Shown here piece by piece: positions 13,505 through 49,491 of a stretch of DNA of 64,000 bases. The notes beneath the pieces are model-generated. The model worked only from the letters and a program-made list of their open reading frames with translations, made no database searches and was not told where the DNA came from. This stretch comes from an uncultured Bacilli bacterium (GTDB lineage Bacteria > Bacillota_I > Bacilli_A > RFN20 > CAG-288): NCBI GenBank assembly GCA_944332485.1, contig CALVKB010000001.1, forward strand, positions 22,924 to 86,923, read 5' to 3'. A program made the position numbers and the translations under genes. Numbering within the stretch: the first letter of the stretch is position 1; each line of letters opens with the position of its first letter.

Positions 13505-13549
13505 TTAAGCAACCGTCGATACTTATATAAAGTAAGGAGGTTGCTTTTT

Positions 13550-15460: not shown

Positions 15461-15461
15461 T

Positions 15462-33096: not shown

Positions 33097-35955
33097 TTAA
33101 ATAATCTTATATGATAATGGTTCAACTTCAGTTGGAACACCATTAACAGTAGGAGTGATTGTCTTATCTGAAAAGTTCATCAAAACATAGTAAGTCTTGT
33201 TTGTTGAAGGATCTTTTGTTGAGAAGCAAATAGACTTCAAATACTCCTCTTTGGTCAAGCCTAAAGAATTCATAGCAGTATTCGAACTATCAACGAAGAA
33301 ATCCATATTCGCATACATCTCATCGAAACTTGAATAACTAGGAAGATTGGAACGAAGTTGTAATTGATCAAATATTTTCATCTGTGAGTAATTTTCTGCT
33401 AATAAACTCCAGTCGATAGCATTAACTTCAACTCCAGTGTTGTATGAATTATGGACAAATGTTCTTTCAACATCGTTGATGATAGATTTGGTCGAATTAG
33501 AAATGACTGTTTGGTCACTCATAAAACGTTCGTTATCTGTTATCTCTTTGCTACGGAAGAACTCCTGTCCTGCTTGGATGAATGAAATACCATTTGTGAA
33601 CATGGTCAAAGCGTTCGATATCTCAGAAAGCTTCTTAGCGATACTCTCATCTTTAGCAGTTATCAAATATTTATCGTAAACTGTCAAATTATCATGACAT
33701 TCGACATAATTAACACTTGCTAACATATTACTTGTTGAATATGGAGTATAAACTTTATTTCCTAATAAGAAGTTTCTGCTTGGATTGCTATTTGTAATTC
33801 CAAAGATGATTTTGTCACGAAGATCGATGAAATTAGAAACTGAAACAGCATCTGTCATATCAAATCCTTCATAGGAATATTGAGCAAAACCTTTATCTTC
33901 TGCGTTGAAAACATTTCCTTTCACGGCATCTCTGAAAGCATCATTGAAAGCTCCAACATAGGAATTTGGATCACTTATTCTACTAAGATTTCCCTGAGTT
34001 GCCATTATGTAATTTTGCTCAGGAAGTTGATCTTCATTACCTTTATAATCGAACATCTCCCAACCTTCACCATAGATCAAAGCGTTAGGATTGATCTGAT
34101 GAACTTTTGAACTCACCATCTCCATGGTATCCAAATCGATAAGTCCCATCAAATCAAAACGGAAACCTTGAACACCGTAGTGAGAAACATAATGACATGT
34201 TGAATCAGCTATGTATCTTGCAAACATACTTCTTGTTGCATTCATATCACTACCAGCTCCAGAACCGTTTGATGTTCTAAAGTAATAATCAGGAACTATG
34301 TTATCGAAATTGGAATTAGTCTTGGATGGAATATGATTATAAACAACATCCATAGTGACACCTAAGCCATCGCTGTTGTAGGTTGTAACAACCTCTTTAA
34401 ATTCATCGATTCTTGCTAATGGATCCTCTTTATTATATGCGTAGCTTCCTTCCAATGAATTATAGTTGTAAGGATCATAACCCCAGTTGTAACCACCATT
34501 ACTAGTAGCGTTCATATATTCATCGCTTGTGTCTGTTTCATCAACAGATTTGAAATCATAAACAGGCATCAATTGAACGTGGGTTAAACCTTTTTCTTTC
34601 AATTCAAGTAAGTAGTTATAACCTATTGACTGTTTTTCAGAATTTTCTTTGTTGTAAAAAGCTGTTTTATCAATCAAAGCTTTGAATGTACCTTTATATT
34701 GTGGATTTTCAGTTTCAAAAGTATCTGATGAGCTGAAATCCTTAACGTGCATCTCATAAATTGTTGGTTTTGCTGAACTTATACTATTGGAAGTTTCAAC
34801 TTGTTGAGTAGTTAAAGCATGCTTTGTAAAGTCAACAACAACGCCATCAGTGGCATTCAATGTTACAGAATATGCATAAGGATCAACGATATTTGTTTTT
34901 GTTTCCCCATAGTTGGTGACTGAATAATGGTATAAACTACCATCATAAGCATCAGTTGTAACTTCATAGCATCCTTTGTTGACAGTAGATTTAGTCATTT
35001 GCAATTCTCTGTAGGTCTGTTCTGTTGGATTCTTGATGTACAATTTTACATCAGTTGCAATTGGTGCCCATAATCTGAAAGTTACTTCATTCAAATTTTC
35101 TGTAAAAATCGCGCCCAACTTAACGTCATCAGTTGGAGTATACATGTCTTCAAAAGTTTGAGATGAATAAAACTTCTGCATCGATAATGGAAGAATCAAC
35201 TCTTCGTTATTCTCATCTGTGTAAATTACTTCATATTTCTTCGTGATGTCCAAATAGTCAGTAGGTAAGATTGTTGTGGTGCTGAACTCATCGACAATCT
35301 TTTCAATTTCAACATTTGTTTTTGAAGTGACTTCTCTTATTTGTAAATCATCTTTAGTCAATTTCAAACTGGTGTCATTTTTATAAACTCTAACACCTTT
35401 ATTTGTTTGATTATTGCTGGTATATCCGTAATTTGCACCGTATAATTTGATACTTTGTATATCTTCTGGTGAGTAATAAACTTCGCCATCAACATAATAA
35501 ATATCACCATTGAACAATGTTGTATCCAAAATAAGATCATTAGTTTGAGTACCACCATCGCTTGTTCTTAAAATAAAACCTCTTGTTGGAGTGACAAAAT
35601 CCTCTCTTGAGATTGACTTAATAACACTTTCTGTGCTTCCGCCCCAGTCACTATACAAAGTATATTCAGTATCAAAAGAAAAACCAATTTTTGAGAAGGT
35701 TATATCGCAATCAGCTACTGTGACATCCTCTTCAATTGCCATATTTTTGAAAAGAACGCTCGAATTATCAACCTCATCATCCCAAGTCCAAATTGCGTCA
35801 AATACACTGTTATCTTTGGTGTAATAGTAAATGTTAACATCATAACCATCACTTGGTGTTGGAGTGCTACTGGTTGTTTGTTCTCCTTTAGAGCAGCTAG
35901 TCAACATTGTAGTTGCTAATAAAGGGAACATAAGTAATTTTGTAATTTTCTTCAT
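33097..35955 (-). CDS. pulA: Pullulanase (type I, GH13_14) lipoprotein, secreted or surface
   Basis: Signal peptide with lipobox LTSC. YNWGYDP, GFRFDLMG (region II), YGEGWEM (region III), YVECHDN (region IV). Confidence 0.9.
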   Translation of the reverse strand: MKKITKLLMFPLLATTMLTSCSKGEQTTSSTPTPSDGYDVNIYYYTKDNSVFDAIWTWDDEVDNSSVLFKNMAIEEDVTVADCDITFSKIGFSFDTEYTLYSDWGGSTESVIKSISREDFVTPTRGFILRTSDGGTQTNDLILDTTLFNGDIYYVDGEVYYSPEDIQSIKLYGANYGYTSNNQTNKGVRVYKNDTSLKLTKDDLQIREVTSKTNVEIEKIVDEFSTTTILPTDYLDITKKYEVIYTDENNEELILPLSMQKFYSSQTFEDMYTPTDDVKLGAIFTENLNEVTFRLWAPIATDVKLYIKNPTEQTYRELQMTKSTVNKGCYEVTTDAYDGSLYHYSVTNYGETKTNIVDPYAYSVTLNATDGVVVDFTKHALTTQQVETSNSISSAKPTIYEMHVKDFSSSDTFETENPQYKGTFKALIDKTAFYNKENSEKQSIGYNYLLELKEKGLTHVQLMPVYDFKSVDETDTSDEYMNATSNGGYNWGYDPYNYNSLEGSYAYNKEDPLARIDEFKEVVTTYNSDGLGVTMDVVYNHIPSKTNSNFDNIVPDYYFRTSNGSGAGSDMNATRSMFARYIADSTCHYVSHYGVQGFRFDLMGLIDLDTMEMVSSKVHQINPNALIYGEGWEMFDYKGNEDQLPEQNYIMATQGNLSRISDPNSYVGAFNDAFRDAVKGNVFNAEDKGFAQYSYEGFDMTDAVSVSNFIDLRDKIIFGITNSNPSRNFLLGNKVYTPYSTSNMLASVNYVECHDNLTVYDKYLITAKDESIAKKLSEISNALTMFTNGISFIQAGQEFFRSKEITDNERFMSDQTVISNSTKSIINDVERTFVHNSYNTGVEVNAIDWSLLAENYSQMKIFDQLQLRSNLPSYSSFDEMYANMDFFVDSSNTAMNSLGLTKEEYLKSICFSTKDPSTNKTYYVLMNFSDKTITPTVNGVPTEVEPLSYKII

Positions 35956-37078: not shown

Positions 37079-37657
37079 ATGTCAAAGAAAATTTTAGTTG
37101 AGACAAGTGCAAGACACGTTCATGTTACAAAAGATACATTGAAAAAATTATTCGGTGAAAATGCTACTCTTGAAGTTAAAAAGTATTTAAGTCAACCAGG
37201 ACAATTTGCTTCAAATAGCAAAGTTGATATTGTCGGTCCTAAAAACACTATCAAGAATGTTTCAATATTAGGTCCAGAAAGAAGTGCTGATCAAGTTGAG
37301 ATGAGTTTAACCGATTGTAGAACTCTTGGAATCGATGCTCCAATAAGAGAATCCGGTGATATCAAAGATTCAGCAAAATGCAAAATTGTCGGCCCATGTG
37401 GTGAAGTTGAATTAAACGAAGGTTTGATCGTTGCAAAAAGACACATCCATATGACTGAGGATGATGCCAAACAATTCAAAGTTAAAAATGGCGACATCGT
37501 CAAAGTCGAAATTCAATCTCCACGTGAGAGAAGTGCCATTTTAAATGATGTTGTAGTCAGAGTTTCAAATTCATATGCTCTTGCTATGCACATCGATACT
37601 GATGAATCAAATTCCTTAGGCTTACAAGGTAACGCCGAAGGCACAATTGTCAAATAA
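37079..37657 (+). CDS. pduL: PduL-type phosphate acyl(propanoyl/acetyl)transferase
   Basis: Two PduL repeats with SARHVHV and AKRHIHM motifs; 192 aa. Confidence 0.85.
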   Translation: MSKKILVETSARHVHVTKDTLKKLFGENATLEVKKYLSQPGQFASNSKVDIVGPKNTIKNVSILGPERSADQVEMSLTDCRTLGIDAPIRESGDIKDSAKCKIVGPCGEVELNEGLIVAKRHIHMTEDDAKQFKVKNGDIVKVEIQSPRERSAILNDVVVRVSNSYALAMHIDTDESNSLGLQGNAEGTIVK

Positions 37658-37667
37658 ATAAGAACGT

Positions 37668-40052
37668 TTATTGTATTTTTTCAAATATTGAAGATAAGGG
37701 AGTTACAACAAATTCTCTATCTTCAATTTTTAATTTAAGTGATTTATTTGAAAAATTGAAACTTGATAAATATTCATTATTATCATCTTTCAAAATGTAG
37801 TTTACAGAATTTAAATAATCCTGTTTTGACAATCCAAATCTACCTTTTTTATCAAAACTCACATTCTCTTTCATCATCTTTATGTTAGGATAAACTGGCA
37901 TTTCGTTTTTTCTGTATGATAAGTATTTTTTGAATTGCTCAACGTACTCTTTGTATTTTGTGACATTATCCCAGTTGATAGCGTTGAGAATAACACCTGA
38001 TGCATATGAATTATGACAAAACACTCTTTTTGTTTCATCGATATTCAAAATGTATGATTGCGATAATGTAAATTCATCCTCAAGATATCTATTTTTCTCA
38101 TTTTCAGGTAAAGCAGTTACTTCCTTAGTTCTGAAAAATTCCTGACCGATTTGGTAAAAACTTATACCATTTGACAATAAAACTAAATTTGTACATAAGC
38201 TTGCAATCTTTCTTGCAATATTCTCATCATGTAAAGTTATGACAAGTTTATCAAACAAAGGGAGATTATCATGACATTCAACATAATTAACGGAGTTGAA
38301 GATATTATGTTCAGAATATGGTATGTAATTTTTGCATGAGATAAGTTCTTTTTTATTTGGATTACTATTCATAATTCCAAATACAATATCATCATGCATC
38401 TGTTTGATTAACTTAACTTCTTTTTTATAGTAACCTTTATAAACTTTCTGACAATATCCATCAACTTTACAATCGAAAACATGGCCTTTCATACCATCAC
38501 GGAATGTGTCGTTGAAAGCTCCAACACAACTATTTGTTGAATCCAAAAAATGCAAATTTTTCTGAATTGCCATCAAATAATCGTTACTTTCATCAAGCTG
38601 ATGAATATTTCCATTCGCATCAAACATATCCCAAGCTTCACCATAAATCAATGAATTTTTATTGATCTTATGAACTTTATCAGATAATTCTCTCATCGCT
38701 TGTAAATCAAGCAATCCCATCAAATCAAAACGGAATCCGGACATTCCGTAATTTTCAGTGAACATACAGCATGAATCGATGATGTATTTTTTGAACATCT
38801 TTCTTGTTGTATTCATATCCGCTCCAGCTTTTGAGGTACTTGATAAACGGAAGTAATAATCAGGTGCGAGCATCTCAAATTTGGAATCCAACTGACTTGG
38901 AACATGGTTGAAAACAACATCCATGATCACACCGACATTTATACTTGCGTATTCTTTTATTACACTTATCATCTCTTTTATTCTGCACAAAGGATCATTT
39001 GGGTTGGAACTGTAATGTGCTTCCAAACAATTGTAATTTAAAGGACCATAACCCCAATTGTAATTGTTGTGGGAAGTTTTCAAGATAAAATCCTTATCAA
39101 AATTATTCTCATGAGCACTTAAAAATTGATAAAAAGGCAATATTTGAATATGTGTCAAACCTTTTTCGCTCAATTCTTTCATGTAATCAAAACCGACTTT
39201 ATCACCATAGGAATTTTTGACATTTTTTTCAATTAATCCAAGATATTTTCCTTTAACTTCAGTATTCTTAGTTATGAAAGTATCAGACATTGAGAAGTCT
39301 TTAACATGAATTTCACAAACGACAGGTTTTGTTGTATAAAAGGATTTAATGTGTTCGAGTGTTTTATTATCTATTTTATGTTTATTCCAATCGATGAAAA
39401 CACCTAATGTTCCATTTTCCAAACACGAGTAACAGTAAGGATCAACCACATTTTCATATGTGATTCCAAAATTTGTTACAGTGAATGTGTATATGCTTAA
39501 ATCTTTAACTTCATTCAAAACAACTTCATAACAACCGTTATTTTGATAATTCATCTTATATTGCTTGAATTCATCATTTATATCGGTTTTCAAATTAAGT
39601 TTTACTTCAGTTGCAAAAGGTGCAAAAACTCTGAAATAGGTCTTGTTATTTTCATTGAAACTTCCAAGTTTATAATCCATATCAGGGGTGTATAAACTGT
39701 TAAATTCTTCAGAGGAATAATATTTATCAAAATATAATCTAGAGCGATATTTTTGATTTCCTGACTCGATTTCAAGAGTGTAAATTTTTCTAATATCCAA
39801 TTTGAAATCGATCAAAACTTCATAATATTCTTTGTGTTTTTTAATGTAATTAAGTTCCTTCACTTCAGAGGTTGAACATAGATGAATCTTATCGATATTC
39901 TTCAAATTTAGCTTAGTGTAAATTCTAATTGAGTTACAATCAACCTCAGAATGTTTGTAACCAAAAACACAATAAAAATCACTTTTTTCACGTTTTATTT
40001 GCACGTTTTTAACTTCATCCTGAATAACAGTTTCGACCTCTTTAAATTCCAT
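37668..40052 (-). CDS. Pullulanase paralogue (type I, GH13), no signal peptide, probably cytoplasmic
   Basis: YNWGYGP, GFRFDLMG, YGEAWDMF, YVECHDN. Preferred start MEFKEV at 40052 after AAGGTGG; the ORF track extends to 40106. Confidence 0.85.
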   Translation of the reverse strand: MEFKEVETVIQDEVKNVQIKREKSDFYCVFGYKHSEVDCNSIRIYTKLNLKNIDKIHLCSTSEVKELNYIKKHKEYYEVLIDFKLDIRKIYTLEIESGNQKYRSRLYFDKYYSSEEFNSLYTPDMDYKLGSFNENNKTYFRVFAPFATEVKLNLKTDINDEFKQYKMNYQNNGCYEVVLNEVKDLSIYTFTVTNFGITYENVVDPYCYSCLENGTLGVFIDWNKHKIDNKTLEHIKSFYTTKPVVCEIHVKDFSMSDTFITKNTEVKGKYLGLIEKNVKNSYGDKVGFDYMKELSEKGLTHIQILPFYQFLSAHENNFDKDFILKTSHNNYNWGYGPLNYNCLEAHYSSNPNDPLCRIKEMISVIKEYASINVGVIMDVVFNHVPSQLDSKFEMLAPDYYFRLSSTSKAGADMNTTRKMFKKYIIDSCCMFTENYGMSGFRFDLMGLLDLQAMRELSDKVHKINKNSLIYGEAWDMFDANGNIHQLDESNDYLMAIQKNLHFLDSTNSCVGAFNDTFRDGMKGHVFDCKVDGYCQKVYKGYYKKEVKLIKQMHDDIVFGIMNSNPNKKELISCKNYIPYSEHNIFNSVNYVECHDNLPLFDKLVITLHDENIARKIASLCTNLVLLSNGISFYQIGQEFFRTKEVTALPENEKNRYLEDEFTLSQSYILNIDETKRVFCHNSYASGVILNAINWDNVTKYKEYVEQFKKYLSYRKNEMPVYPNIKMMKENVSFDKKGRFGLSKQDYLNSVNYILKDDNNEYLSSFNFSNKSLKLKIEDREFVVTPLSSIFEKIQ

Positions 40053-40337
40053 AATTTCAACCACCTTTATAATACAATGATAAATATATATTTTTATTTT
40101 ATTCAATTCAATATTTTTATTTTTGAAATATTAATAAATTGTTAATTTGCTTTGTAATAGGTATCATAATTGAAAAAGCAATTTATTTACACTATATAAA
40201 AGTTGCTTTATAATTTTTACTCTATTCTTTATGTTATACAAAAACAACAAAAAACGTAAAAAATTTCTTCATAAATTAAAGTTGAAAATAATATTATTTT
40301 TATTTATATTTTATATGGTTATAAGGGAGTTTTAAGT

Positions 40338-41834
40338 ATGCCAAAATTTCATTTTTTAGCAACAGATGGTATGACTAAAATCGACGGTCATAAATATCCG
40401 CATTGTGACACTCCGATAATCAAATACGATCCTGATAAGGTCTACATTCAAGCAGTAGATAACAAAGGTCTTCCTCTTAGTGAGATGGTCAAAGTTAATG
40501 ATACTGTTTGTGTTGGTACAGTGTTAGGAATACGTAACGATTTCAATTTACCCGTTTACTCTTCAGTGAGTGGTAAAGTTGTCGCAATCGAAAAGAAAAC
40601 CTCCACAACAGTCGGAAGGTTAGTCGATCATTTTGTCATCGAGAATGACAAAAAATACACAAAAGTAAACTTGCCAAAACTTACTTCCAGAACTAAGGAA
40701 GCAGTGGTAGATTTACTCAAGAAAGGAAGCATCGTCGGTTTAGGTGGTGCCGGTTTCCCAACGTTCATCAAATACAATGTGAAACCTGGAACTGTCATTG
40801 ACACAATCTTAGTCAATGCGGTTGAATGTGAACCATATTTAACAACCGATTATGTGGAAGGTGCTAGAAGTGTCAACGATATGTTCTACGCTTTACCAAT
40901 TTTGATGGAAATCGTAGAAGCAAAACAAGCTATCATCGCTTGTAAAGAGAATAAAAAACACCTTATTGATGCAATCAAGAACGCTATCAATGAGCACAAG
41001 GAAGTCAATGCAAAATTGGTTTTAGTTAAAGACCGTTACCCGATGGGTTTTGAAAGAACACTCATCCGTGAAGTCTTAAAAAGAGAATATGAAGTTCTTC
41101 CAAGTGAATGCCACGTTATCGAAAACAACATTCAGACACTGGAAGCTGCTGGAAGACTTTTCAGAGATGGTGAAGTTATCACCAGACGTGTTATCACCAT
41201 CGCTGGTGAAGCTGTCGCAACACCAAACAACTATGATGTTCCAGTTGGAACCATGTTAAATGACATAGTTGTTAATAACGGTGGTTACAGCTGTGAGGAA
41301 GTCAAGGTTATCAATGGTGGTCCGATGTGTGGTAAAGCTGTCTTGACAACCGAAATACCAGTTTTACTTCAAACCGGTGGTTTCACAATCTTACATAGAT
41401 ATGACATCAAAGCTGAACCATGTTGGAAATGTGGTGCTTGCGTTGATCACTGTCCTATGGGATTACAGCCAGTGCAAATTCAGATGGCTATCAATAGAGG
41501 AGATGTCGAGCGTTGCCACGATCTCCAAGTTGAAAAATGTGTTGAATGTGGATTATGTTCATTTGTCTGTCCAAGTCATATCGATGTTTCCGCAAATGTC
41601 AGCAAAGCTAAATTGATGGCAAGGTTGAAATTCAAACCTGGTGTCAAATCACAAAAAGAAGAACAACGTGAGAAGATAAAAGCTTCACTTCAAAAATTCA
41701 AAGATCTCTTCAAAAAGAAAACTCCAGAGGAGAAAAAACTTATTGAAGAGAAGAAAAAAGAAGCAAAAGAAGCAAAACTTAGATCAAAACAACAAAAGCA
41801 AGAAGTTAAACAAACAGAAAAGGAGGGTAACTAA
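40338..41834 (+). CDS. rnfC: Rnf electron-transport complex subunit C
   Basis: GLGGAGFPT NADH/FMN site; two 4Fe-4S motifs CWKCGACVDHCP and CVECGLCSFVCP; Lys/Glu-rich C-terminal tail. Confidence 0.93.
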   Translation: MPKFHFLATDGMTKIDGHKYPHCDTPIIKYDPDKVYIQAVDNKGLPLSEMVKVNDTVCVGTVLGIRNDFNLPVYSSVSGKVVAIEKKTSTTVGRLVDHFVIENDKKYTKVNLPKLTSRTKEAVVDLLKKGSIVGLGGAGFPTFIKYNVKPGTVIDTILVNAVECEPYLTTDYVEGARSVNDMFYALPILMEIVEAKQAIIACKENKKHLIDAIKNAINEHKEVNAKLVLVKDRYPMGFERTLIREVLKREYEVLPSECHVIENNIQTLEAAGRLFRDGEVITRRVITIAGEAVATPNNYDVPVGTMLNDIVVNNGGYSCEEVKVINGGPMCGKAVLTTEIPVLLQTGGFTILHRYDIKAEPCWKCGACVDHCPMGLQPVQIQMAINRGDVERCHDLQVEKCVECGLCSFVCPSHIDVSANVSKAKLMARLKFKPGVKSQKEEQREKIKASLQKFKDLFKKKTPEEKKLIEEKKKEAKEAKLRSKQQKQEVKQTEKEGN

Positions 41835-41836
41835 CT

Positions 41837-43702
41837 ATGGTCAAAACTGCAATTCAAAATTCACCCCATCTCAGAGGTAAAAACTCGACCTTCAAGATGA
41901 TGATGGAATTTTTGATCGTCGTTAGCATTCTTTGGGTTTGTTCAATTATCTACTATTTTGTAGGTGATTTTGCAAATTATTACAGTGTCCAATACGGTCT
42001 TAAAGCCATCGGAATGGGTGTAAGCTGTGTTTTATTCGCATTTATAACCGATGCTATTTTCTATCTTCCTATCTTTTGGAAAGATGAGAAACGTCTCAAA
42101 CTTGCCAAAGGTGAAACAAGAGTTAAAAGTTACTTTAAGAAGTTGATTTTCAACTATTCTTACGTAACAGGTTTGTTGATTGCATTATTATTCCCAATCG
42201 GTACTCCTGTTTATGTATTATTTGTCTGTACTTTCATCTCCGTTTTCATCTTCAAAAATCTCTTCGGAGGTTTTGGAGCCAACATCTTCAATCCAGCTAT
42301 CATAGGAAGAGTTATCGGACAGATAGCATTTGCTGGCCAATTGAAAACATATCTTGGTGAAAATGCACCTACCTCTGAATTTTTAAACAGCGGTGCTTCC
42401 TTGACAAGCCAATTTGCTGGTACATCAAATTCAATCGGATATGGATTTAGCCAAATTTCAACTTTGAATCTTTTCATAGGAAATTATGTTGGAACCTTAG
42501 GTGAAACATTCGCTATTGTCATAATCATTCTCGCTGTTTATTTGATGGTTAGAAAAATCATCGACTGGAGAGTTGTACTTTCATTTGTTGTCACTTTCTA
42601 TTTGACATATTTCTTGATCAATCTCTGTTCTGGTAAAGGTGTGAATTCATTTGAGAATGCCTTTAGACAATTATGTGTCGGCGGTGCTTTGTTCGGTGCA
42701 GTATTTTGTTTAACAGACCCTGTTACAAGCCCAGTCAACAGAACCGGTAAGATAATCTTTGCAACAGGTAGTGCTTTGATTACTATCGTTATTAGAATTT
42801 TCGCATCTGCTCCTGAAGGAATGGCTTATTCAATCCTTGTTATGAATATGCTCGTCCCGATGATCGATTACTTCACAAGTGAAAGAACAAATAAACACAT
42901 GTGGAAAAAATACACCGCAATCTCAATCATCCCTGCTGCAAGTATCATATTAGGTTGTTCCTATGGTGGTGTTAATTATGTAGCTCCTGTCAAACCAGTT
43001 ACTCCTACAGGTGACGTGGTTTTATCAAAAATTAAAGTTTCAAATAACTATGCTGATTATGGCCATTATGAATTGAATGTCACTGTTGGTACAGATTTCA
43101 AGGTTTACCAAATTGAGATACTTACTCATTCATACACACTTGAAGATTCGTGGATTCAAGGTGGAAGTCATAGTCATGTGATGGAAACTGATTTTACAGA
43201 ATTTGTCAACACATATATTCCAACAGCTTCTAAAGCTATAAGTTTTGCAACTTACGATAATTGTTCATTAAGTGATATTAATAATATTCAAAGTAATTCA
43301 ACTGAAGCAACATATGGATTAGTTTTAGCTGTTCAAAAAGCTATCAATGAATACAAAGCTGAATATACAAAGATCACTGTCGATCATAAAGGTACACAGT
43401 ATTTCGATTCTTTCAGTGGAAATGTTTATATCAATGATGACAAAGTATATTACACTGAGATTACAGATGCTTCCATTGAAATGGATTGCACAATCGATGA
43501 ATTTTTAAATGGTGGCTCTCACACAACTGATACAAGTGTCGATTCAACTGAATTTTCAGAACGTTATATCAACCGTGGTGATGGTATTCCTTTCTCCGTT
43601 TTTGAAGGAACAAAAGTGACTGTAGCTGGTGCTACAATTACTTCCAGTGGATATATTGATTTTGTCAATGAAGCTATCCAACAATATAAAGCGAGCAAAT
43701 AG
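41837..43702 (+). CDS. rnfD: Rnf subunit D fused to about 260-aa C-terminal extension (extra TM + two repeat modules, the last with an FMN-binding-type VAGATITS motif)
   Basis: NqrB/RnfD core (about 350 aa, ends ...VMNMLVPMIDYFT), then an extra TM (AISIIPAASIILGCSYGG) and a soluble domain. That domain is paralogous to the C-terminus of the next gene (NVYINDDKVYYTEI...LNGGSHTT...VAGATITSSGYIDF). Confidence 0.85.
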   Translation: MVKTAIQNSPHLRGKNSTFKMMMEFLIVVSILWVCSIIYYFVGDFANYYSVQYGLKAIGMGVSCVLFAFITDAIFYLPIFWKDEKRLKLAKGETRVKSYFKKLIFNYSYVTGLLIALLFPIGTPVYVLFVCTFISVFIFKNLFGGFGANIFNPAIIGRVIGQIAFAGQLKTYLGENAPTSEFLNSGASLTSQFAGTSNSIGYGFSQISTLNLFIGNYVGTLGETFAIVIIILAVYLMVRKIIDWRVVLSFVVTFYLTYFLINLCSGKGVNSFENAFRQLCVGGALFGAVFCLTDPVTSPVNRTGKIIFATGSALITIVIRIFASAPEGMAYSILVMNMLVPMIDYFTSERTNKHMWKKYTAISIIPAASIILGCSYGGVNYVAPVKPVTPTGDVVLSKIKVSNNYADYGHYELNVTVGTDFKVYQIEILTHSYTLEDSWIQGGSHSHVMETDFTEFVNTYIPTASKAISFATYDNCSLSDINNIQSNSTEATYGLVLAVQKAINEYKAEYTKITVDHKGTQYFDSFSGNVYINDDKVYYTEITDASIEMDCTIDEFLNGGSHTTDTSVDSTEFSERYINRGDGIPFSVFEGTKVTVAGATITSSGYIDFVNEAIQQYKASK

Positions 43703-43713
43703 GAGGTTAATTT

Positions 43714-44820
43714 ATGTCAGAAGAATTGAAAGATAAAGTTAACAAAGAGGTTACTACCTCCCAAAATGAAGCTTCAAAAGACACTTCAAAAGAAAACAAA
43801 AAACAGAAAAAAGTGAAAAAAGCAAAAACAAAGAAACCTTTGAGCAATTTCATCTTATTCCCGATTGTTTTAGGTTCTGTATGTTTGATCTCGGCTGGTG
43901 CTATAGCTGGTATCAATTATTTAACTGAGCCAATCATCGCACGTAATGCTGAGAAAAAGTATCTCAAATCCTGTTACAAATTATTAGGTAACGAAAACAT
44001 CGACAAAACTCAAGGTACTGATGGTCTTAGTAAAGCTGATGTTCCAACAAGTGCCAGCTACATTTTGCAAGCTTACAAAGTCTTTGTCACCAGTGAATTT
44101 GCTTCAGCACATTCTGAATACTCCGATTTTTATTACTATGTCTTACAAACTCCATCCGGTTACAAAGGCAGTGTTACATTAGCTTGTATCATCGCTGGTA
44201 CATACGGAGAAGATGGCGTTTTGTATGATATGATGGCTATCGATACAACAAGTGAAGATGCACTTGGTGCCGGTCAACTTCAAAATGTGACTGTTAAACC
44301 TGGCTACACAGGTGAAGATGGTGATAATCTTTTAGATTCAGGTTACATCACCAGTGGTGCCACAGCAAAAGTCACTTTCAACGCTGTCGATACAGCTATC
44401 AAACAAGCTATCCAAGTGTTTGAAGGTAAGATTATCCCAACTATCGGTTATCAAAAAACTGAAGATGGTTATGAAATTTACTATAACGAACATAGTATTG
44501 AAAATATGACATACTCCAGTTTTACCGGATATGTCTACATCAAGGATGAGAAAGTCTACAATGTTGAAATTTTAAGTTCAACAAACACAATTGGTGCAAA
44601 AGATAACGCCTGGCTCAATGGTGGATCCTACAGTTATTACGAAGATATGTTAGATTTCACATCATTCTCCAACAAATATGTCAATGCAACTGATGGTGTG
44701 AGCTTCGATGTATTTTCAAGTGATCCAGTTTATGTTGCTGGAGCTACCCAAGCTACCGAAGGCTATGTTGAATTTATCAGAAGTACAATAGAATTGTACA
44801 ATGAACATCATAATAAATAA
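43714..44820 (+). CDS. rnfG: Rnf subunit G with additional C-terminal FMN-binding-like module (two SGAT-type motifs)
   Basis: K-rich N-tail, TM, RnfG/NqrC-like FMN_bind region with ITSGATAKVT. A second module YVYIKDEKVYNVEI...LNGGSYSY...VAGATQATEGYVEF follows. 368 aa, whereas RnfG is usually about 200. Confidence 0.8.
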   Translation: MSEELKDKVNKEVTTSQNEASKDTSKENKKQKKVKKAKTKKPLSNFILFPIVLGSVCLISAGAIAGINYLTEPIIARNAEKKYLKSCYKLLGNENIDKTQGTDGLSKADVPTSASYILQAYKVFVTSEFASAHSEYSDFYYYVLQTPSGYKGSVTLACIIAGTYGEDGVLYDMMAIDTTSEDALGAGQLQNVTVKPGYTGEDGDNLLDSGYITSGATAKVTFNAVDTAIKQAIQVFEGKIIPTIGYQKTEDGYEIYYNEHSIENMTYSSFTGYVYIKDEKVYNVEILSSTNTIGAKDNAWLNGGSYSYYEDMLDFTSFSNKYVNATDGVSFDVFSSDPVYVAGATQATEGYVEFIRSTIELYNEHHNK

Positions 44821-44831
44821 GGAGGTCGGAT

Positions 44832-45644
44832 ATGTCAGAAAATAAAATTAATACTGCTGATGTTGAAAAAAGTTCAGAAGTAGTGAACTCTGCTGAATCA
44901 ACTCAAAAAAGTGCAGTTAGTACCAAAGTTACTGATAAACCTAAAAAAGTGAAGAAACCGAATGAATTATTGAAAGTATTCACAAACGGAATCATCAAAG
45001 ATAATGCCTTGTTAGTGATGCTTCTTGGTTTATGTCCTTTATTCCCTTCAACAACCTCAATAAACAACGCTATTGGTATGTCAGTTGCTGTTTTGTTCGT
45101 TCTTTTCTTCTCGAACATCATCATCAGTTCAATACGTAAAATCGTACCAAGCAACATCCGTGTTCCTGTGTACATCGTTGTTATCGCAACATTGGTTACA
45201 ATCGTCGAATTGTTGATGAAAGCATTCACTGAGACATTGTATGAACAACTCTCAGTTTTCATATCTTTGATCGTTGTTAACTGTATCATCTTAGGAAGAG
45301 CCGAAGCCTTTGCAAGCAAAAACTCCGTTGGCAAATCAGCTTTGGATGCTTTAGGTATCTCAATTGGTTTTGCGATGGTTTTGCTTATTGTCGCCTTCTT
45401 CCGTGAAGTCATCGGTACAGGTGGAATAACATTTGTCAATCCATTCACCGGCGATACCTTATTCACATTCTTGCCACTTGCTGATTTTGCTGTTCCAGTA
45501 TTCGTTCAAAGTTTCGGTGGATTTGTCACATTCGGTTTAGTTTTGGGTGTCTTCACAACCATCACCATGTGGAACAACGACCGCAAGATGAAGAAAGAAC
45601 AAAAAGAAAAATTAGCTTTGCAACAAGCTAAAGGAGGTAAATAA
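44832..45644 (+). CDS. rnfE: Rnf subunit E
   Basis: NqrD/RnfE family LGLCPLFPSTTSINNAIGMS with six TMs. About 45-aa K/S/T-rich N-terminal extension. Confidence 0.9.
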   Translation: MSENKINTADVEKSSEVVNSAESTQKSAVSTKVTDKPKKVKKPNELLKVFTNGIIKDNALLVMLLGLCPLFPSTTSINNAIGMSVAVLFVLFFSNIIISSIRKIVPSNIRVPVYIVVIATLVTIVELLMKAFTETLYEQLSVFISLIVVNCIILGRAEAFASKNSVGKSALDALGISIGFAMVLLIVAFFREVIGTGGITFVNPFTGDTLFTFLPLADFAVPVFVQSFGGFVTFGLVLGVFTTITMWNNDRKMKKEQKEKLALQQAKGGK

Positions 45645-45646
45645 AA

Positions 45647-46252
45647 ATGGTATTTTTAACTACATTCATATCTTCCTTATTAGTTAACAACGTCATACTA
45701 AGTGGAACAAAAGGCCTTTGCTCCTACATCGGACTTTCCAAAGATAAAAAAGCAACTTTAGGTATGTCGATCGCTTTGATCGTCGTTTGTGTTTTATCAG
45801 GTTTGATCTCCTGGGGCTTAGCCGCTTTATTGACACTTATCAACGCAACTTATTTATCAACAATCGTCAGCATCCTTGTCATCGCATCATTTGTTCAACT
45901 TCTTGAGATTTTCATCAAGAAATTCCTCCCAAGTTTGTATAAATCATTGGGTATTTACTTGCCATTGATTACAACAAACTGTGTTGTTATGGGTTTGGCT
46001 ATTTCAATTTTCTCAACATACGCAAAATATATCGATGGTACTCTTAGCTCCCTTGATAGTGCTTTGACCATCCTTGGTATGATCTTAGCTTATCCATTAG
46101 GTTACTTCATGGTTATCTATGTCTTTGCTTTCATTCAAGAGAGAATTCAAAACAACAACGAAACTCCACGTGGTTTCAAAGGTGCTGCTATCGCTTTTAT
46201 CGCAACAGCTGCTATGTGTTTAGCAATTTACGGCTTCACCGGACTTGTTTAA
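45647..46252 (+). CDS. rnfA: Rnf subunit A
   Basis: NqrE/RnfA family; six TMs; 201 aa. Confidence 0.9.
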   Translation: MVFLTTFISSLLVNNVILSGTKGLCSYIGLSKDKKATLGMSIALIVVCVLSGLISWGLAALLTLINATYLSTIVSILVIASFVQLLEIFIKKFLPSLYKSLGIYLPLITTNCVVMGLAISIFSTYAKYIDGTLSSLDSALTILGMILAYPLGYFMVIYVFAFIQERIQNNNETPRGFKGAAIAFIATAAMCLAIYGFTGLV

Positions 46253-46267
46253 TAGAGGTTTGTTAAT

Positions 46268-46588
46268 TTGCTTTATAACTCAAATTTAAACTACCTTTGG
46301 ATGGTTTTGATAGTTTTGGGGGCTGTTGGTATATTTGTAAGTTTGTATCTTATAAATAAAAAAACTAAGCCTCCAAAAGACTGTCCGAAGAACATCGTCG
46401 GTTGCCAAGGTTGCATGCTTAACTGCAATAGAAGAGAAGAGGATTTCAATGTCAGTGATTATTTAAATCCTGATTTGACGAAAGTCAGATACGTGAAAAT
46501 TGAGAAAGTTAAAAAACTTAAAAAAGAGCAGTATATGCAAGAATCAGATAAACTGATGCGTGAAATTTTAAGTCAATATAAAAAGTAA
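46268..46588 (+). CDS. Small membrane protein with CPKNIVGCQGCMLNC cysteine cluster (TTG start after AGAGG, or ATG at 46301)
   Basis: One TM then C-x6-C-x2-C-x3-C. Sits between rnfA and rnfB, where no canonical Rnf gene is expected. Confidence 0.4.
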   Translation: MLYNSNLNYLWMVLIVLGAVGIFVSLYLINKKTKPPKDCPKNIVGCQGCMLNCNRREEDFNVSDYLNPDLTKVRYVKIEKVKKLKKEQYMQESDKLMREILSQYKK

Positions 46589-46599
46589 AGGAGAATTAT

Positions 46600-46929
46600 A
46601 TGTTACCAGTTTGGGCACAGATTGTTTTAGCAATTGTTGTAGTTGTTTTATTAGGTGTTCTTTTCAGTATATTGATCGCTGTTTTTTCAAAATACTTCGC
46701 TGTTAAAGAGGACCCTCGCAAAGAGAAAGTTATGTCTTTAATTCCAGGTGTTAACTGCGGTGCTTGCGGTCATCCTGGTTGTTCTGGCTTAGTTGATGCA
46801 TTGATCAGCGGCAAAGAAACACACGTCAAACAATGTAAAGTCATCAAAGATGACAAAGCTAATGAGATCAAAAACTACCTTAATGAAACTCCCGGACCTG
46901 ATGGTCAAACTTTGAAGGTAGATTTGTAA
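46600..46929 (+). CDS. rnfB: Rnf subunit B, minimal form (N-terminal membrane anchor + single Cys-cluster domain; no ferredoxin-type domains)
   Basis: FAVKEDPRKEKVMSLIPGVNCGACGHPGCSGLVDA...C aligns with the E. coli RsxB N-terminus ([35 protein letters not shown]). Stops after 109 aa with no CxxCxxCxxxCP dicluster region. Confidence 0.8.
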   Translation: MLPVWAQIVLAIVVVVLLGVLFSILIAVFSKYFAVKEDPRKEKVMSLIPGVNCGACGHPGCSGLVDALISGKETHVKQCKVIKDDKANEIKNYLNETPGPDGQTLKVDL

Positions 46930-46948
46930 TAAACATTTATATATCGAT

Positions 46949-47419
46949 ATGAAATTAAATTCCAAAGCAAAAAAAAGATACAACTTCAATTTTCAAGATG
47001 TCATCTTTATTTTGCTTGGAATTTTTTTAGTTATAAGTTTGTTGTTGTACACATTGTTCGGTATCAATAGAAACGTCAACGAGAACTCTTTTGTTGTTAT
47101 AACTTACGCTGGTACCGAAATTTACAACAGACCTATAACTGAAGAGAAGGACCCATTGGTCATAACAAAACAGATGGGAATAACAGGAGATCCCGAAAAC
47201 AATATACTTTCAATAGGTCGTGAGTTTGATTTTGTCGGACCAACTGTTGAAGTGAGAATCGTCGATATGACAATTCAGGTTGTTCAAGAGGATTCACCAC
47301 ATAAAATCTGCTCTAACCAAGGAGTTGTGAAATACGCCAATACCCCCATCATCTGCGAACCAAATTATATACAAGTTGTCATCGTTGATTACTCAAGTGA
47401 CAAACCGGACAATATGTAA
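46949..47419 (+). CDS. Membrane-anchored NusG_II-domain-like protein
   Basis: N-terminal TM. C-terminal SPHKICSNQGVV...PIICEPNYIQVVIV resembles the CP(D/H)KICV..G.I...IVCLPN.V.I signature of NusG domain-II proteins that accompany flavin transferases. Confidence 0.5.
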   Translation: MKLNSKAKKRYNFNFQDVIFILLGIFLVISLLLYTLFGINRNVNENSFVVITYAGTEIYNRPITEEKDPLVITKQMGITGDPENNILSIGREFDFVGPTVEVRIVDMTIQVVQEDSPHKICSNQGVVKYANTPIICEPNYIQVVIVDYSSDKPDNM

Positions 47420-47421
47420 CT

Positions 47422-47943
47422 ATGAACATAGAAAGAATCGTCAGAATAAGCTTATTTGTAGCTTTATCAACAGTTATACACTTTTTTGAATCGATGATTG
47501 TTATTCCAATTCCAATACCTGGATTCAAGTTGGGATTAGCGAATATTGTCGGTGTTTTTGTACTATTTTATTATGGTTATAAAGATTATGTCGGAGTTAC
47601 TTTTTTTAGAGTTTTGTTAGTTGCTATTTTGTTCAGTGGTTTTGGAACTGGATTTTTATTAAGTTTTGCTGGTAATTTATTCGCAGTATTAATAACAACT
47701 TTGATCTACTTTTTAACACGAAGTAGCATATTCAGTGCTTCTGTTTTAGGAGCTATATTCCACTCCATTGGTCAAGTGTTGATGTACATGCTTATCTCAC
47801 AAAGTGTTTATATAATCACATATTTACCATATTTAGCTATTTTAAGTATGCTAAGTGGTTTCTTACTAGCTTTGATATGCCGTATGGTATTAATAAGAAT
47901 GCCAGAATACAAAGACACAAGTAAGATAAGAAGAAAAAGATAA
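47422..47943 (+). CDS. Gx-transporter family membrane protein ('heptaprenyl diphosphate synthase component I'-like)
   Basis: Five or six TMs with glycine-rich GFGTGFLLSFAGN. Usually partnered with NusG_II and FMN-binding or ApbE genes. Confidence 0.65.
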   Translation: MNIERIVRISLFVALSTVIHFFESMIVIPIPIPGFKLGLANIVGVFVLFYYGYKDYVGVTFFRVLLVAILFSGFGTGFLLSFAGNLFAVLITTLIYFLTRSSIFSASVLGAIFHSIGQVLMYMLISQSVYIITYLPYLAILSMLSGFLLALICRMVLIRMPEYKDTSKIRRKR

Positions 47944-48015: not shown

Positions 48016-48282
48016 ATGATTGTTAAATATACTTATAAACCAGTTGGAGTTTGCTCACAACAGATGGATTTTGAAATAGATGACCAAACAAATAAAATCG
48101 TCAGTTTGAAAGTTACTCGTGGATGCAACGGTAACTTAAAAGGTATCAGCAAACTTGTTGAGAATAGAAGTGTTGAGGAAGTTATAAGTTTACTTGAGAA
48201 TATCGAATGTGGAACAAAACACACCAGTTGCCCAGATCAGATCGCTCAAGGTTTAAAACAATTTTTAGCTATTAAAAATTAA
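48016..48282 (+). CDS. TSCPD-domain protein
   Basis: 88 aa with the literal TSCPDQ motif plus GVCSQQ and RGCNGN cysteine motifs. Confidence 0.7.
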   Translation: MIVKYTYKPVGVCSQQMDFEIDDQTNKIVSLKVTRGCNGNLKGISKLVENRSVEEVISLLENIECGTKHTSCPDQIAQGLKQFLAIKN

Positions 48283-48321: not shown

Positions 48322-49491
48322 ATGAAAAATAAAATATTGTTCACTTCAGAGAGTGTCTCAGAAGGACACCCTGATAAAGTGTGTGACCAAATAGCCGATG
48401 CTATTTTGGATGAATGCTTAAAACAGGATAAAAAATCCAGAGTTGCCTGTGAAGTTTTAGCAACTAATAACAAAATCGTTTTAGCTGGTGAGATAACTTC
48501 TAAAGCGAAGATAAACATAAATAAGATTGTAAAAGATGTCGTCAAAGATATCGGTTACACCAAGAAAGAATATGGTTTCACATACAAAAATGTGAAAATT
48601 ATCAATATGATCAAAAAACAATCCTTGGATATCGCTATGGGTGTTGATCAAAGTGATGATGTTCTAGGTGCTGGTGACCAAGGTATCATGTTCGGTTATG
48701 CCACAAATGAAGACAAGACTTCCTATATGCCTCTTCCTTTGATAATGGCACATAGAATAGTACAATTGGCAACATCTTTAAGAAAGAAAGGTATTCTTAA
48801 ATATGCCCGTCCTGATATGAAATCACAAGTGACAATCGATTACACCTCTAAGGATAATTTGAAAGTCGATACTATCATCTTCTCCTGTCAGCATGATGAG
48901 AATATCGATTTTGAACAATTCAAAAAAGAACTTAAAACAAAAGTTATCGATGTCGTTTTGAAAGAATACAACTTCGATAAATGTGAGAATATTTTGATAA
49001 ATCCTACAGGACGTTTCGTCATCGGTGGACCAGTCGGTGATACTGGATTAACTGGTAGAAAATTGATAGTTGATACTTACGGTGGTTTTGTCAATCATGG
49101 TGGTGGTGCATTTTCTGGCAAGGATCCTTCAAAAGTCGATAGAAGTGCTTCCTATATGGCACGCTATGTTTGTAAAAATCTCGTCGCTAGTGGAATGTGC
49201 GATAAATGTATGATTCAATTATCATACGCCATCGGTTATCCAAAGCCTATCAGTATCTATTTAGATACTTACAATACAGAGAAAGTTGATAGAAACATCT
49301 TATTAAGCTGTATTAAAGATTTATTTGATTTCACACCGAAAGGTATAATCGATACTCTCAGATTATTGGATGATAATATAAGATATCGTGAATTGACCAA
49401 TTACGGTCATTTTGGAAAGAACAATTTCAGTTTTGAACAATTAGACATGGTTGATAAAATAAAAGAGTACGTTAAGAAAGCAAGTAAATAA
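48322..49491 (+). CDS. metK: S-adenosylmethionine synthase
   Basis: FTSESVSEGHPDK, GDQG, GGGAFSGKD motifs. AAAGGGGA RBS before the ATG at 48322; the track ORF begins at 48283. Confidence 0.95.
   Translation: MKNKILFTSESVSEGHPDKVCDQIADAILDECLKQDKKSRVACEVLATNNKIVLAGEITSKAKININKIVKDVVKDIGYTKKEYGFTYKNVKIINMIKKQSLDIAMGVDQSDDVLGAGDQGIMFGYATNEDKTSYMPLPLIMAHRIVQLATSLRKKGILKYARPDMKSQVTIDYTSKDNLKVDTIIFSCQHDENIDFEQFKKELKTKVIDVVLKEYNFDKCENILINPTGRFVIGGPVGDTGLTGRKLIVDTYGGFVNHGGGAFSGKDPSKVDRSASYMARYVCKNLVASGMCDKCMIQLSYAIGYPKPISIYLDTYNTEKVDRNILLSCIKDLFDFTPKGIIDTLRLLDDNIRYRELTNYGHFGKNNFSFEQLDMVDKIKEYVKKASK

Follow-up and report, generated by a model that had tools for sequence, protein, structure and literature searches.

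Reviews have treated Rnf as a uniform ferredoxin:NAD+ (nicotinamide adenine dinucleotide) pump, in which ferredoxin is docked by RnfB (PMC12174285). RnfB's C-terminal domain, with two to seven [4Fe-4S] clusters, accepts ferredoxin, and a small flexible [4Fe-4S] domain of the same subunit feeds RnfA/E (PMC12174285, 2025 review). For RNF clusters with a multi-flavinylated RnfG, a second route to extracytosolic acceptors was proposed (Méheust 2021, eLife, PMC8238504). Here, an rnf locus at positions 40338-47943 of a 64,000-nucleotide stretch (the window; assembly GCA_944332485.1, contig CALVKB010000001.1) from an uncultured Bacilli bacterium was analysed. It was read as the Rnf of an uncultured Bacilli organism with low guanine plus cytosine (GC) content (Mollicute-like), in a form typical of a large clade and with a flavin side branch that would lead outwards; we give this reading about an even chance.

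The window DNA (GC ca. 32%) is chromosomal and uses the standard bacterial code, and its housekeeping genes, surveyed as open reading frames (ORFs), resemble those usual in small fermentative genomes of Bacilli or Mollicute-like bacteria. Families were identified by Pfam and NCBIfam profile searches of the window proteins. Nine tightly packed ORFs were found on the plus strand at 40338-47943: rnfC-D-G-E-A, a gene for a small protein with one transmembrane (TM) helix and four Cys, a short rnfB, a NusG_II gene and a PF07456 gene. An earlier reading of the letters without database searches (the sequence-only reading) had given the same order and positions, and the profile identities agreed with it. 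The six-gene rnf set C, D, G, E, A and B is present in this one cluster (C, D, E, A and B by Pfam/NCBIfam).

RnfD and RnfG with their added modules

The core of RnfD (residues 1-355; 41837-42901, plus strand) was matched by PF03116 (E 2.8e-66, residues 6-351) and aligned with 7zc6_D and 9eri_D; its covalent flavin mononucleotide (FMN) site reads SGAS (Ser188, nucleotides 42398-42400), with Gly186 and Ala187 at least 90% conserved in the family alignment. Solved RnfD chains matched the window protein only up to residue ca. 350, which is their own C terminus; the extension therefore amounts to ca. 270 amino acids (aa). The core is followed by a Lys/Arg-rich linker, a hydrophobic helix at residues 361-379 and ca. 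240 more residues. The helix (42917-42973, plus strand) was recognised by hydropathy, carries four Lys/Arg in its N-terminal flank versus one in its C-terminal flank, and has no counterpart in the solved RnfD chains. Behind it lie the modules M1 (residues 392-508; 43010-43360, plus strand) and M2 (residues 509-621; 43361-43702, plus strand, including the stop codon), both homologous to a third copy in RnfG far beyond chance (blastp E 3e-11 and 1e-23, respectively); module length is ca. 115 aa. The candidate acceptor of M2 is Thr600 in VAGAT (nucleotides 43634-43636), and that of M1 is Thr489 in a degenerate SNST (nucleotides 43301-43303). The length of the extension, the extra TM helix and the motif VAGATITS (residues 596-603) had been described correctly by the sequence-only reading, which had counted one module instead of two.

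The N-terminal part of RnfG (residues 1-242; 43714-44439, plus strand), encoded between rnfD and rnfE, consists of a Lys-rich cytoplasmic tail, a TM helix (residues 46-66) and a canonical FMN domain with TSGAT (Thr217, nucleotides 44362-44364). The protein is very divergent and gave no sequence match in the PDB. It was identified as RnfG by its gene position, by TIGR01947 (E 3.3e-4) and by the fold of residues 73-242 (AlphaFold2 pLDDT, the score of the predicted local distance difference test, 80-96), for which the sole significant match was 9eri_G, the RnfG of Acetobacterium woodii (E 7.4e-5, probability 1.00). The added C-terminal module (residues 243-368; 44440-44820, plus strand) is the third copy and carries VAGAT (Thr345, nucleotides 44746-44748) in VAGATQATEG (residues 341-350). 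At 368 aa RnfG is ca. 170 aa longer than the solved chains, the excess being made up of a 45-aa Lys-rich N-terminal tail and the C-terminal module of ca. 125 aa, as expected from the earlier account of a lengthened RnfG with a second module.

A profile of six module sequences was compared by HHalign with repeats from other extended RnfD proteins, all of them positive for Pfam FMN_bind; the match had a probability of 96.3% (E 1.6e-9) over 99 columns, and the AGAT of the modules was placed on the canonical TGAT. The best PDB sequence match of the module profile was Clostridium tetanomorphum RnfG (7zc6_G), at its flavinylation site, with a weak E of 0.15. Foldseek returned FMN domains of the multi-flavinylated CbFMN4 and SaFMN3 (8p2b, 8p2a) as the top three PDB matches of M2 (probability 0.80-0.98). 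We conclude that the three added modules are divergent FMN_bind domains with an acceptor Thr, as had been supposed from the letters; the homology was recovered by profile-profile comparison and not by direct Pfam or NCBIfam searches.

Several of these results weigh against the proposed outward branch. The Pfam FMN_bind (PF04205) cut-off was reached by no module copy, the best score being that of RnfD 594-615 (E 0.046, 14.8 bits versus a cut-off of 22), and RnfG gave no match. The AlphaFold model of M2 was moderate (pLDDT 69.5) and its fold matches were weak (E ca. 0.06); the RnfG C-terminal module was poorly predicted in the full-length RnfG model (pLDDT <50). The ApbE motif is D-x-x-[S/T]-G-A-[S/T], and published mutagenesis found the acceptor to be essential and the Asp nearly dispensable, with Gly/Ala changes costing ca. 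50% of flavinylation. Ser188 of RnfD (SGAS) and Thr217 of RnfG (SGAT) fit this motif. The sites of M2 and the RnfG module read V-x-V-A-G-A-T and fit it in part, with Ala at position -3 and no Asp at -6 (AGAT at both Thr600 and Thr345), and the S-N-S-T of M1 departs from it. The two motifs that the sequence-only reading had called SGAT-type thus match the ApbE motif in part.

The same departures, together with the Pfam scores below the cut-off and the absence of apbE from the ca. 74 kb examined, would be accounted for if the modules were derived from FMN_bind but flavin-free, serving as structural or surface domains of a wall-less organism whose genome perhaps lacks ApbE. We consider this very improbable: the acceptor Thr is invariant in 6/6 aligned module copies and G-A-T is kept in 5/6, close homologs differ in the residue at -3 (S, T, A, I or N), changing the Asp affects flavinylation only slightly, ApbE is in any case required for the canonical sites of RnfD and RnfG, and an EetB-like gene for export of flavin adenine dinucleotide (FAD) is kept in the operon. 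Because the acceptor is invariant, position -3 is variable and the mutagenesis shows tolerance, flavinylation of Thr600 and Thr345 is judged likely from sequence; that of Thr489 is doubtful.

Topology was predicted by hydropathy and by positive-inside counts of Lys and Arg. The RnfG anchor has seven versus two such residues across its TM helix, and the RnfD tail and the RnfG domains are predicted to be extracytoplasmic, which agrees with the location assumed for the added modules in the sequence-only reading, as do the four versus one Lys/Arg around the extra RnfD helix. The NusG_II domain is predicted to lie outside; for RnfB and the small protein, the Cys motifs are predicted to face the cytoplasm.

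Short RnfB, related loci and rival electron paths

Related loci (80) were retrieved from species-representative genomes with an RnfD profile. They came from Erysipelotrichaceae (among them Anaerorhabdus, Longibaculum, Holdemania, Floccifex and [Eubacterium] hominis, all with cultured members), from numerous uncultured Bacilli, and from Proteiniclasticum, Leptotrichia and other Fusobacteriales, the Bacilli being of gut and environmental origin; the closest RnfD in these genomes was 45% identical. RnfD was longer than 450 aa in 58/75 loci, database homologs reached 1024 aa, some with Pfam-positive FMN_bind repeats, and a jackhmmer search seeded with the window RnfG recovered the extended RnfD ORFs of these loci. 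Close relatives had between zero and at least five added modules. An RnfB was present in 65/80 loci, with a median length of 105 aa and a maximum of 137 aa, and the ferredoxin-docking domain was absent from all of these (65/65). Cultured examples of the design are Anaerorhabdus furcosa ATCC 25662 (RnfD of 510 aa, RnfB of 111 aa) and Longibaculum muris DSM 29487 (616 and 126 aa, respectively). In 52/80 loci ApbE (verified by PF02424) was encoded no more than 10 kb away, often in the order rnfB-apbE-nusG_II-Gx; the window shows the common layout of the clade minus the adjacent apbE. The departures from canonical Rnf listed by the sequence-only reading are not peculiar to this locus, the short RnfB and extended RnfD being the normal Rnf design of a large clade.

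The window rnfB (46600-46929, plus strand) encodes 109 aa and was matched in Pfam by PF04060 alone (E 1.3e-9, residues 49-80) and by positions 3-92 of the 190 of TIGR01944. The protein consists of a TM helix and a small [4Fe-4S] domain (Cys 53, 56, 61 and 79) and has no polyferredoxin domain. It aligned only with the N-terminal ca. 75 aa (residues ca. 4-75) of 9eri_B, 7zc6_B and 8ahx_B (solved chains with 333, 274 and 174 aa); against 9eri_B, 4/4 Cys were matched, and no sequence is present beyond the small domain. RnfB is therefore an anchor with one Cys cluster that lacks the ferredoxin-accepting part, as had been noticed before. Searches for homologs of the short RnfB and of RnfG gave only six and five relatives, respectively.

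The gene upstream of rnfB (46268-46588, plus strand) encodes a membrane protein of 106 aa and starts with TTG, with an AGAGG ribosome-binding site 9 nucleotides upstream. One TM helix is followed by NKKTKPPKDC-x6-C-x2-C-x3-C, predicted to be cytoplasmic. No significant Pfam/NCBIfam match was obtained (best E 0.064), and phmmer against 1.84 billion representatives gave only 12 matches, too few for a family; weak matches to PF12669 (FeoB-associated, Cys-rich) in 5/10 members are a hint only. An ORF with the motif NKKT.KP.GC-x5-8-C-x2-C-x3-4-C occupies the rnfA-rnfB position in most related loci (L006-L080), is conserved across Erysipelotrichaceae, uncultured Bacilli and Leptotrichia, and is absent where rnfB is absent. 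The protein is a candidate for an extra subunit or an Fe-S maturation factor. Assignment to NqrM (DUF539) was rejected, as PF04400 was unmatched in 10/10 members at E up to 10. NqrM, a small Cys protein with a single TM helix and reportedly four conserved Cys, is required for maturation of the NqrD/E iron centre; the likeness (single TM helix, conserved Cys, a gene encoded with the complex and near flavinylation genes) is one of analogy and not of family membership.

Among the related loci, those with the nearest RnfD (L002, L003, L004, L008 and L012; 37-45% identity) have rnfC-D-G-E-A followed directly by NusG_II-Gx, with the NusG_II-Gx pair divergently upstream in L012. No rnfB and no small Cys ORF was found within 10 kb in any of the five, and their RnfD is not extended (381-393 aa). 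These would be Rnf complexes without any RnfB-type input module.

In ca. 17 relatives, lipoproteins of 300-390 aa with two repeats are encoded beside apbE or rnf (L015:16869-17906, L017:16804-17865, L019:14606-15550, L020:17803-18900, L025:17257-18366, L044:16381-17379, minus strand, L056:16644-17825 and others). They gave no Pfam match at 1e-3 and matched a Clostridium thermocellum protein, 2kzx_A (E 3.3e-8), at ISGATIKV, an SG(A/C)T site; this match carries the link to flavin domains, since HHalign comparison with FMN_bind gave a probability of only 7%. A PplA-type double FMN domain was described from an Erysipelotrichaceae protein; these lipoproteins may correspond to it and may be PplA-like extracellular double flavin proteins. 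A family hidden Markov model (HMM) found no PplA-like two-repeat lipoprotein in the window. Three lipoprotein genes lie between rnfB and apbE in L026 (14015-16202): two paralogs of 233 and 216 aa, and a third protein of 245 aa that ends in an SGAS site and then a helix and has no Pfam match.

Two loci stem from uncultured Holdemania species. One (L032) encodes an RnfG of 409 aa, in which four motifs are candidates for flavinylation, and an RnfD of 453 aa with a mild extension; the other (L055) encodes an RnfD of 459 aa, and its RnfG region is cut off. Holdemania is an Erysipelotrichaceae genus with very large sets of secreted flavin reductases, and the study that reported them leaves their membrane electron source unidentified.

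Two readings without an outward side branch on a working pump were weighed against these loci. The sequence-only reading had preferred an NADH-driven chain to a ferredoxin:NAD+ oxidoreductase. In its strict form, electrons would run one way from NADH to extracytoplasmic flavins, the RnfA/E/B half would be vestigial and ferredoxin would not be involved. One-way two-subunit NQR/RNF-like systems do exist (PMC8238504), the window RnfB has no ferredoxin-accepting domain, and the nearest RnfD relatives named above have no rnfB within 10 kb. The known one-way systems, however, discarded RnfA, RnfE, RnfB and RnfC altogether, whereas the ligands of the RnfA/E [2Fe-2S], the RnfB [4Fe-4S] and the RnfC clusters are all conserved in the window, and RnfB and the small Cys protein keep their places in the gene order throughout the clade. 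Selection thus acts on the cytoplasmic RnfB branch, and the complex has not shrunk to a one-way chain from NADH to the outside; we attach little credence to the strict form, and the earlier preference was given up. A two-subunit NQR/RNF-like system (Méheust 2021; Huang 2024), in which an RnfD/NqrB domain is fused to a cytosolic NqrF-type NAD-binding domain (PF00175), was likewise rejected for the window, as no PF00175 was found in the RnfD extension and all Rnf subunits are present.

The same conservation in RnfA, RnfE and RnfB fits equally well an ordinary ion-translocating ferredoxin (or flavodoxin):NAD+ oxidoreductase, which counts against the outward branch. The extra flavins would then serve the internal path as a relay, a buffer or a support for RnfG, and the short RnfB cluster would take electrons directly from a soluble carrier, perhaps aided by the small Cys protein. 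All cofactor ligands of the canonical path are conserved, the retained part of RnfB is the small flexible [4Fe-4S] domain that feeds RnfA/E (PMC12174285), the design is found throughout a clade of anaerobes that live by fermentation and include Leptotrichia, whose relative Fusobacterium nucleatum needs Rnf for ATP and amino-acid fermentation (PMC10790702), and the window holds no gene for an external acceptor. In a fixed internal path it would nevertheless be unusual for the module number to differ so widely (none to at least five) between close relatives; the ferredoxin-docking domain is missing in 65/65 RnfB proteins, and the double FMN-type lipoproteins beside the cluster in several relatives suggest partners outside the complex. 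An ordinary pump is regarded as a serious, if less likely, rival.

Flavin supply and the proposed side branch

The last operon gene (47422-47943, plus strand) encodes a Gx/EetB-like multi-TM protein of 173 aa that resembles the S component of energy-coupling factor (ECF) transporters; it was matched by PF07456 (E 2.6e-31; 109 bits versus a cut-off of 30) and PF12822 (E 1.6e-6). eetB is defined by PF07456, and Listeria EetB is an ECF-S-like, FAD-binding membrane protein that is required for the FAD export serving extracytosolic flavinylation by the ApbE homolog FmnB (PMC9973259). Co-localisation of the gene with apbE was reported for 2,169 genomes, and with rnf for 572 genomes of Clostridia (PMC9973259). 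Because PF07456 marks the EetB family, the last gene has a published functional reading (PMC9973259), and the window protein is predicted to be a FAD-export subunit supplying ApbE. No ECF-T or ECF-A gene was recognised among the window ORFs in the ORF survey.

The preceding gene (46949-47419, plus strand) encodes a membrane-anchored NusG_II protein of 156 aa (PF07009, E 2.7e-10) with N-in topology. Gx pairs with NusG_II in 34/34 related loci, and with ApbE in 29 of those 34. Both families were recovered as the sequence-only reading had named them, and its description of the pair as known partners of flavinylated proteins is published for Gx as EetB (PMC9973259). For NusG_II the description is overstated: the association is seen only in the present locus counts and in supplementary cluster tables, which list NusG_II proteins adjoining ApbE (Méheust 2021, PMC8238504), and no paper in the literature searched discusses NusG_II proteins as flavinylation partners. 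Identification of NusG_II with Listeria EetA was unsupported, lmo0408 being the sole Listeria NusG_II protein in that literature. The ApbE/NusG_II/EetB gene trio offers a testable lead on how FAD reaches ApbE.

By its sequence, the canonical redox path is complete, through RnfC (NADH/FMN and two [4Fe-4S]), Ser188 of RnfD, Thr217 of RnfG, the four-Cys [2Fe-2S] of RnfA/E and the single [4Fe-4S] of RnfB. In the proposed mechanism ApbE, encoded elsewhere in the genome, would attach FMN to RnfD at Thr600, to RnfG at Thr345 and perhaps to RnfD at Thr489 as well, for a total of four or five covalent flavins. At the RnfG/RnfD flavin node a side branch made up of the extra flavins would lead off to acceptors beyond the membrane, such as free flavins, flavinylated lipoproteins or reductases, or other oxidants. 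This branch would be fed by NADH via RnfC and by a low-potential donor via the short RnfB, and the ion-translocating core would be retained. On the side of the truncated RnfB, the small Cys protein would contribute a further cluster; alternatively, it would assist in the assembly of membrane Fe-S centres, as is proposed of NqrM for NQR. Beyond the sequence, we infer FMN on the added domains, electron flow away from the RnfG/RnfD node and an acceptor outside.

Further points count against the outward branch. No apbE was found in the 64-kb window with an HMM built from the ApbE proteins of eight relatives (--max), nor in ca. 10 kb beyond the right window edge, ca. 74 kb being examined in total; the search for this partner suggested by the sequence-only reading thus came back empty within that range, and ApbE is assumed to be encoded elsewhere in the source genome. 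The window contains no candidate for an external acceptor (PplA-like lipoprotein or secreted reductase), and the literature searched yielded no biochemical assay of an Rnf with this architecture.

A further-reaching version would make the Rnf of the clade (Erysipelotrichales, RF39-/Acholeplasma-like Bacilli and Leptotrichia) a distinct seven- or eight-subunit enzyme. A partnership with the small protein with a TM helix and four Cys would take the place of the ferredoxin-docking domain of RnfB, a flavin wire of up to five or more covalent flavins on RnfD and RnfG would lead electrons from NADH or ferredoxin to PplA-like lipoproteins and to secreted flavin reductases while ions were still pumped, and NusG_II, as an obligatory partner on the outer face, would hand FAD from EetB to ApbE. 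We hold this version to be unlikely. If true, it would supply the membrane link that anaerobic respiration in these gut lineages still lacks; in the study of their respiratory reductases the membrane chain is unidentified and quinones are unmentioned. With the outward side branch as proposed, if the flavins are real and carry electrons outwards, bacteria not known to use respiratory quinones would have a simple route to couple the oxidation of NADH or ferredoxin to external acceptors, and the large reductase repertoires reported for Erysipelotrichaceae would be possible acceptors. Even without outward flow, the short RnfB raises the question of the electron donor to these complexes.

Operon context and comparison with known systems

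The first gene, rnfC (40338-41834, plus strand; 498 aa), was matched by TIGR01945 (E 2e-88), PF01512 (E 1.9e-32) and PF13375; RnfC has an NADH/FMN domain, an SLBB domain, two CxxCxxCxxxCP [4Fe-4S] motifs (Cys 362-372 and 401-411) and a Lys/Glu-rich C-terminal tail. rnfE (44832-45644, plus strand; 270 aa with a 45-aa N-terminal extension) was matched by NF009070 (E 4.3e-70), and rnfA (45647-46252, plus strand; 201 aa) by TIGR01943 (E 5.7e-47). The intramembrane [2Fe-2S] ligands Cys25 and Cys112 of RnfA aligned with Cys of 7zc6_A, and Cys68 and Cys151 of RnfE with Cys of 7zc6_E. Low-complexity tails of 45-70 aa, rich in Lys, Glu and Ser and predicted to be cytoplasmic, were seen in RnfC (41630-41834), RnfG (43714-43848) and RnfE (44832-44970); they are not present in solved homologs, and the Lys-rich RnfG tail was found in the RnfG homologs P0124 and P0125, too.

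The best sigma-70-like promoter match upstream of rnfC (40186-40214, plus strand) reads TTTACA-17-TATAAT and agrees with the consensus at 11/12 positions, which is a consensus match only. Of the two terminator-like hairpins reported by the plus-strand scan, one (45768-45782) falls within the coding sequence of rnfA and the other (49145-49162) past the end of the unit. From rnfC to a downstream gene for a TSCPD-domain protein, no end is thus marked by a hairpin, which is consistent with a single transcription unit. The TSCPD gene (48016-48282, plus strand; TIGR03905, E 1.4e-29) encodes 88 aa with four Cys, and its membership in the operon is uncertain. It lies 3' of the operon in 11 other loci (L002-L004, L007, L009, L011, L019, L024, L026, L031 and L068), or in 12 when the near-identical L001 is counted, and directly after rnfB in L007 and L009. 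The TSCPD protein might act together with the short RnfB in the cytoplasm.

Just upstream of the rnf operon lie two large pullulanase-like (CBM48) genes on the minus strand (33097-35955 and 37668-40106) and a gene for a PduL-type phosphotransacylase on the plus strand (37079-37657), an arrangement that is kept in the 96%-identical contig L001. Two large genes for fusions of ATPase and permease of the ATP-binding cassette type were seen at 13541-18245, where GC falls to 25% versus ca. 32% elsewhere; this segment may be foreign or fast-evolving.

The literature searched contains no description of the fusion of RnfD with FMN_bind, of an RnfB that is short throughout, of the small Cys protein or of the pairing of NusG_II with EetB. 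All of these are widespread in public genomes, and the proteins whose source is named are annotated there simply as RnfD. An outward electron branch for RNF was already proposed by Méheust 2021 (PMC8238504), so the central idea is not new. The window locus is an ordinary member of its clade, and as such a sound lead for the bioenergetics of gut Bacilli rather than a surprise.

The extracellular electron transfer (EET) locus of Listeria monocytogenes (PplA, Ndh2, DmkA/B, EetA/B and FmnA/B) shares with the window an EetB-family gene near extracytosolic proteins with ApbE-type flavin sites. The logic would be shared as well: FAD export, flavinylation outside and passage of electrons along covalent flavins. 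In contrast to Listeria, the membrane source in the window is Rnf and not Ndh2 with demethylmenaquinone, and the flavin domains are fused to Rnf subunits. Ndh2, quinone-synthesis genes and FmnA were not recognised in the survey of window ORFs (a profile search was made for PplA-like proteins only), and no FmnB/ApbE was found in the window; the comparison with the PplA system of flavin-based EET (FLEET) drawn by the sequence-only reading is an analogy.

SaFMN3 and CbFMN4 (8p2a, 8p2b; PMC10339131), the best structural matches of M2, consist of tandem small FMN domains with FMN on a Thr just before the C-terminal helix. They are soluble and secreted and have canonical motifs, whereas the window modules are tethered to RnfD and RnfG and carry AGAT; identity is 15-19% (E ca. 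0.06).

Like the multi-flavinylated RNF of Méheust 2021 (PMC8238504), the window RnfG has more than one FMN domain (Thr217 and Thr345). In that study the extra domains were on RnfG only, whereas in the window they are on RnfD, too; its text and supplementary files, as searched, mention no FMN_bind-RnfD fusion, truncated RnfB or small Cys protein (PMC8238504).

The canonical Rnf complexes of C. tetanomorphum (7zc6), A. woodii (9eri) and Azotobacter vinelandii (8ahx) share their six subunits and the order of their genes with the window locus. Full-length alignment with solved Rnf was obtained for the window RnfC, RnfD core, RnfE and RnfA, and the [2Fe-2S] and [4Fe-4S] ligands and both covalent FMN sites are kept. 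Compared with these complexes, the window RnfB has 109 aa instead of 174-333 aa and ends after the first [4Fe-4S] domain, RnfD has gained a TM helix and two FMN_bind-like domains, RnfG has gained one such domain, and an extra gene for a small protein with a TM helix and four Cys lies between rnfA and rnfB.

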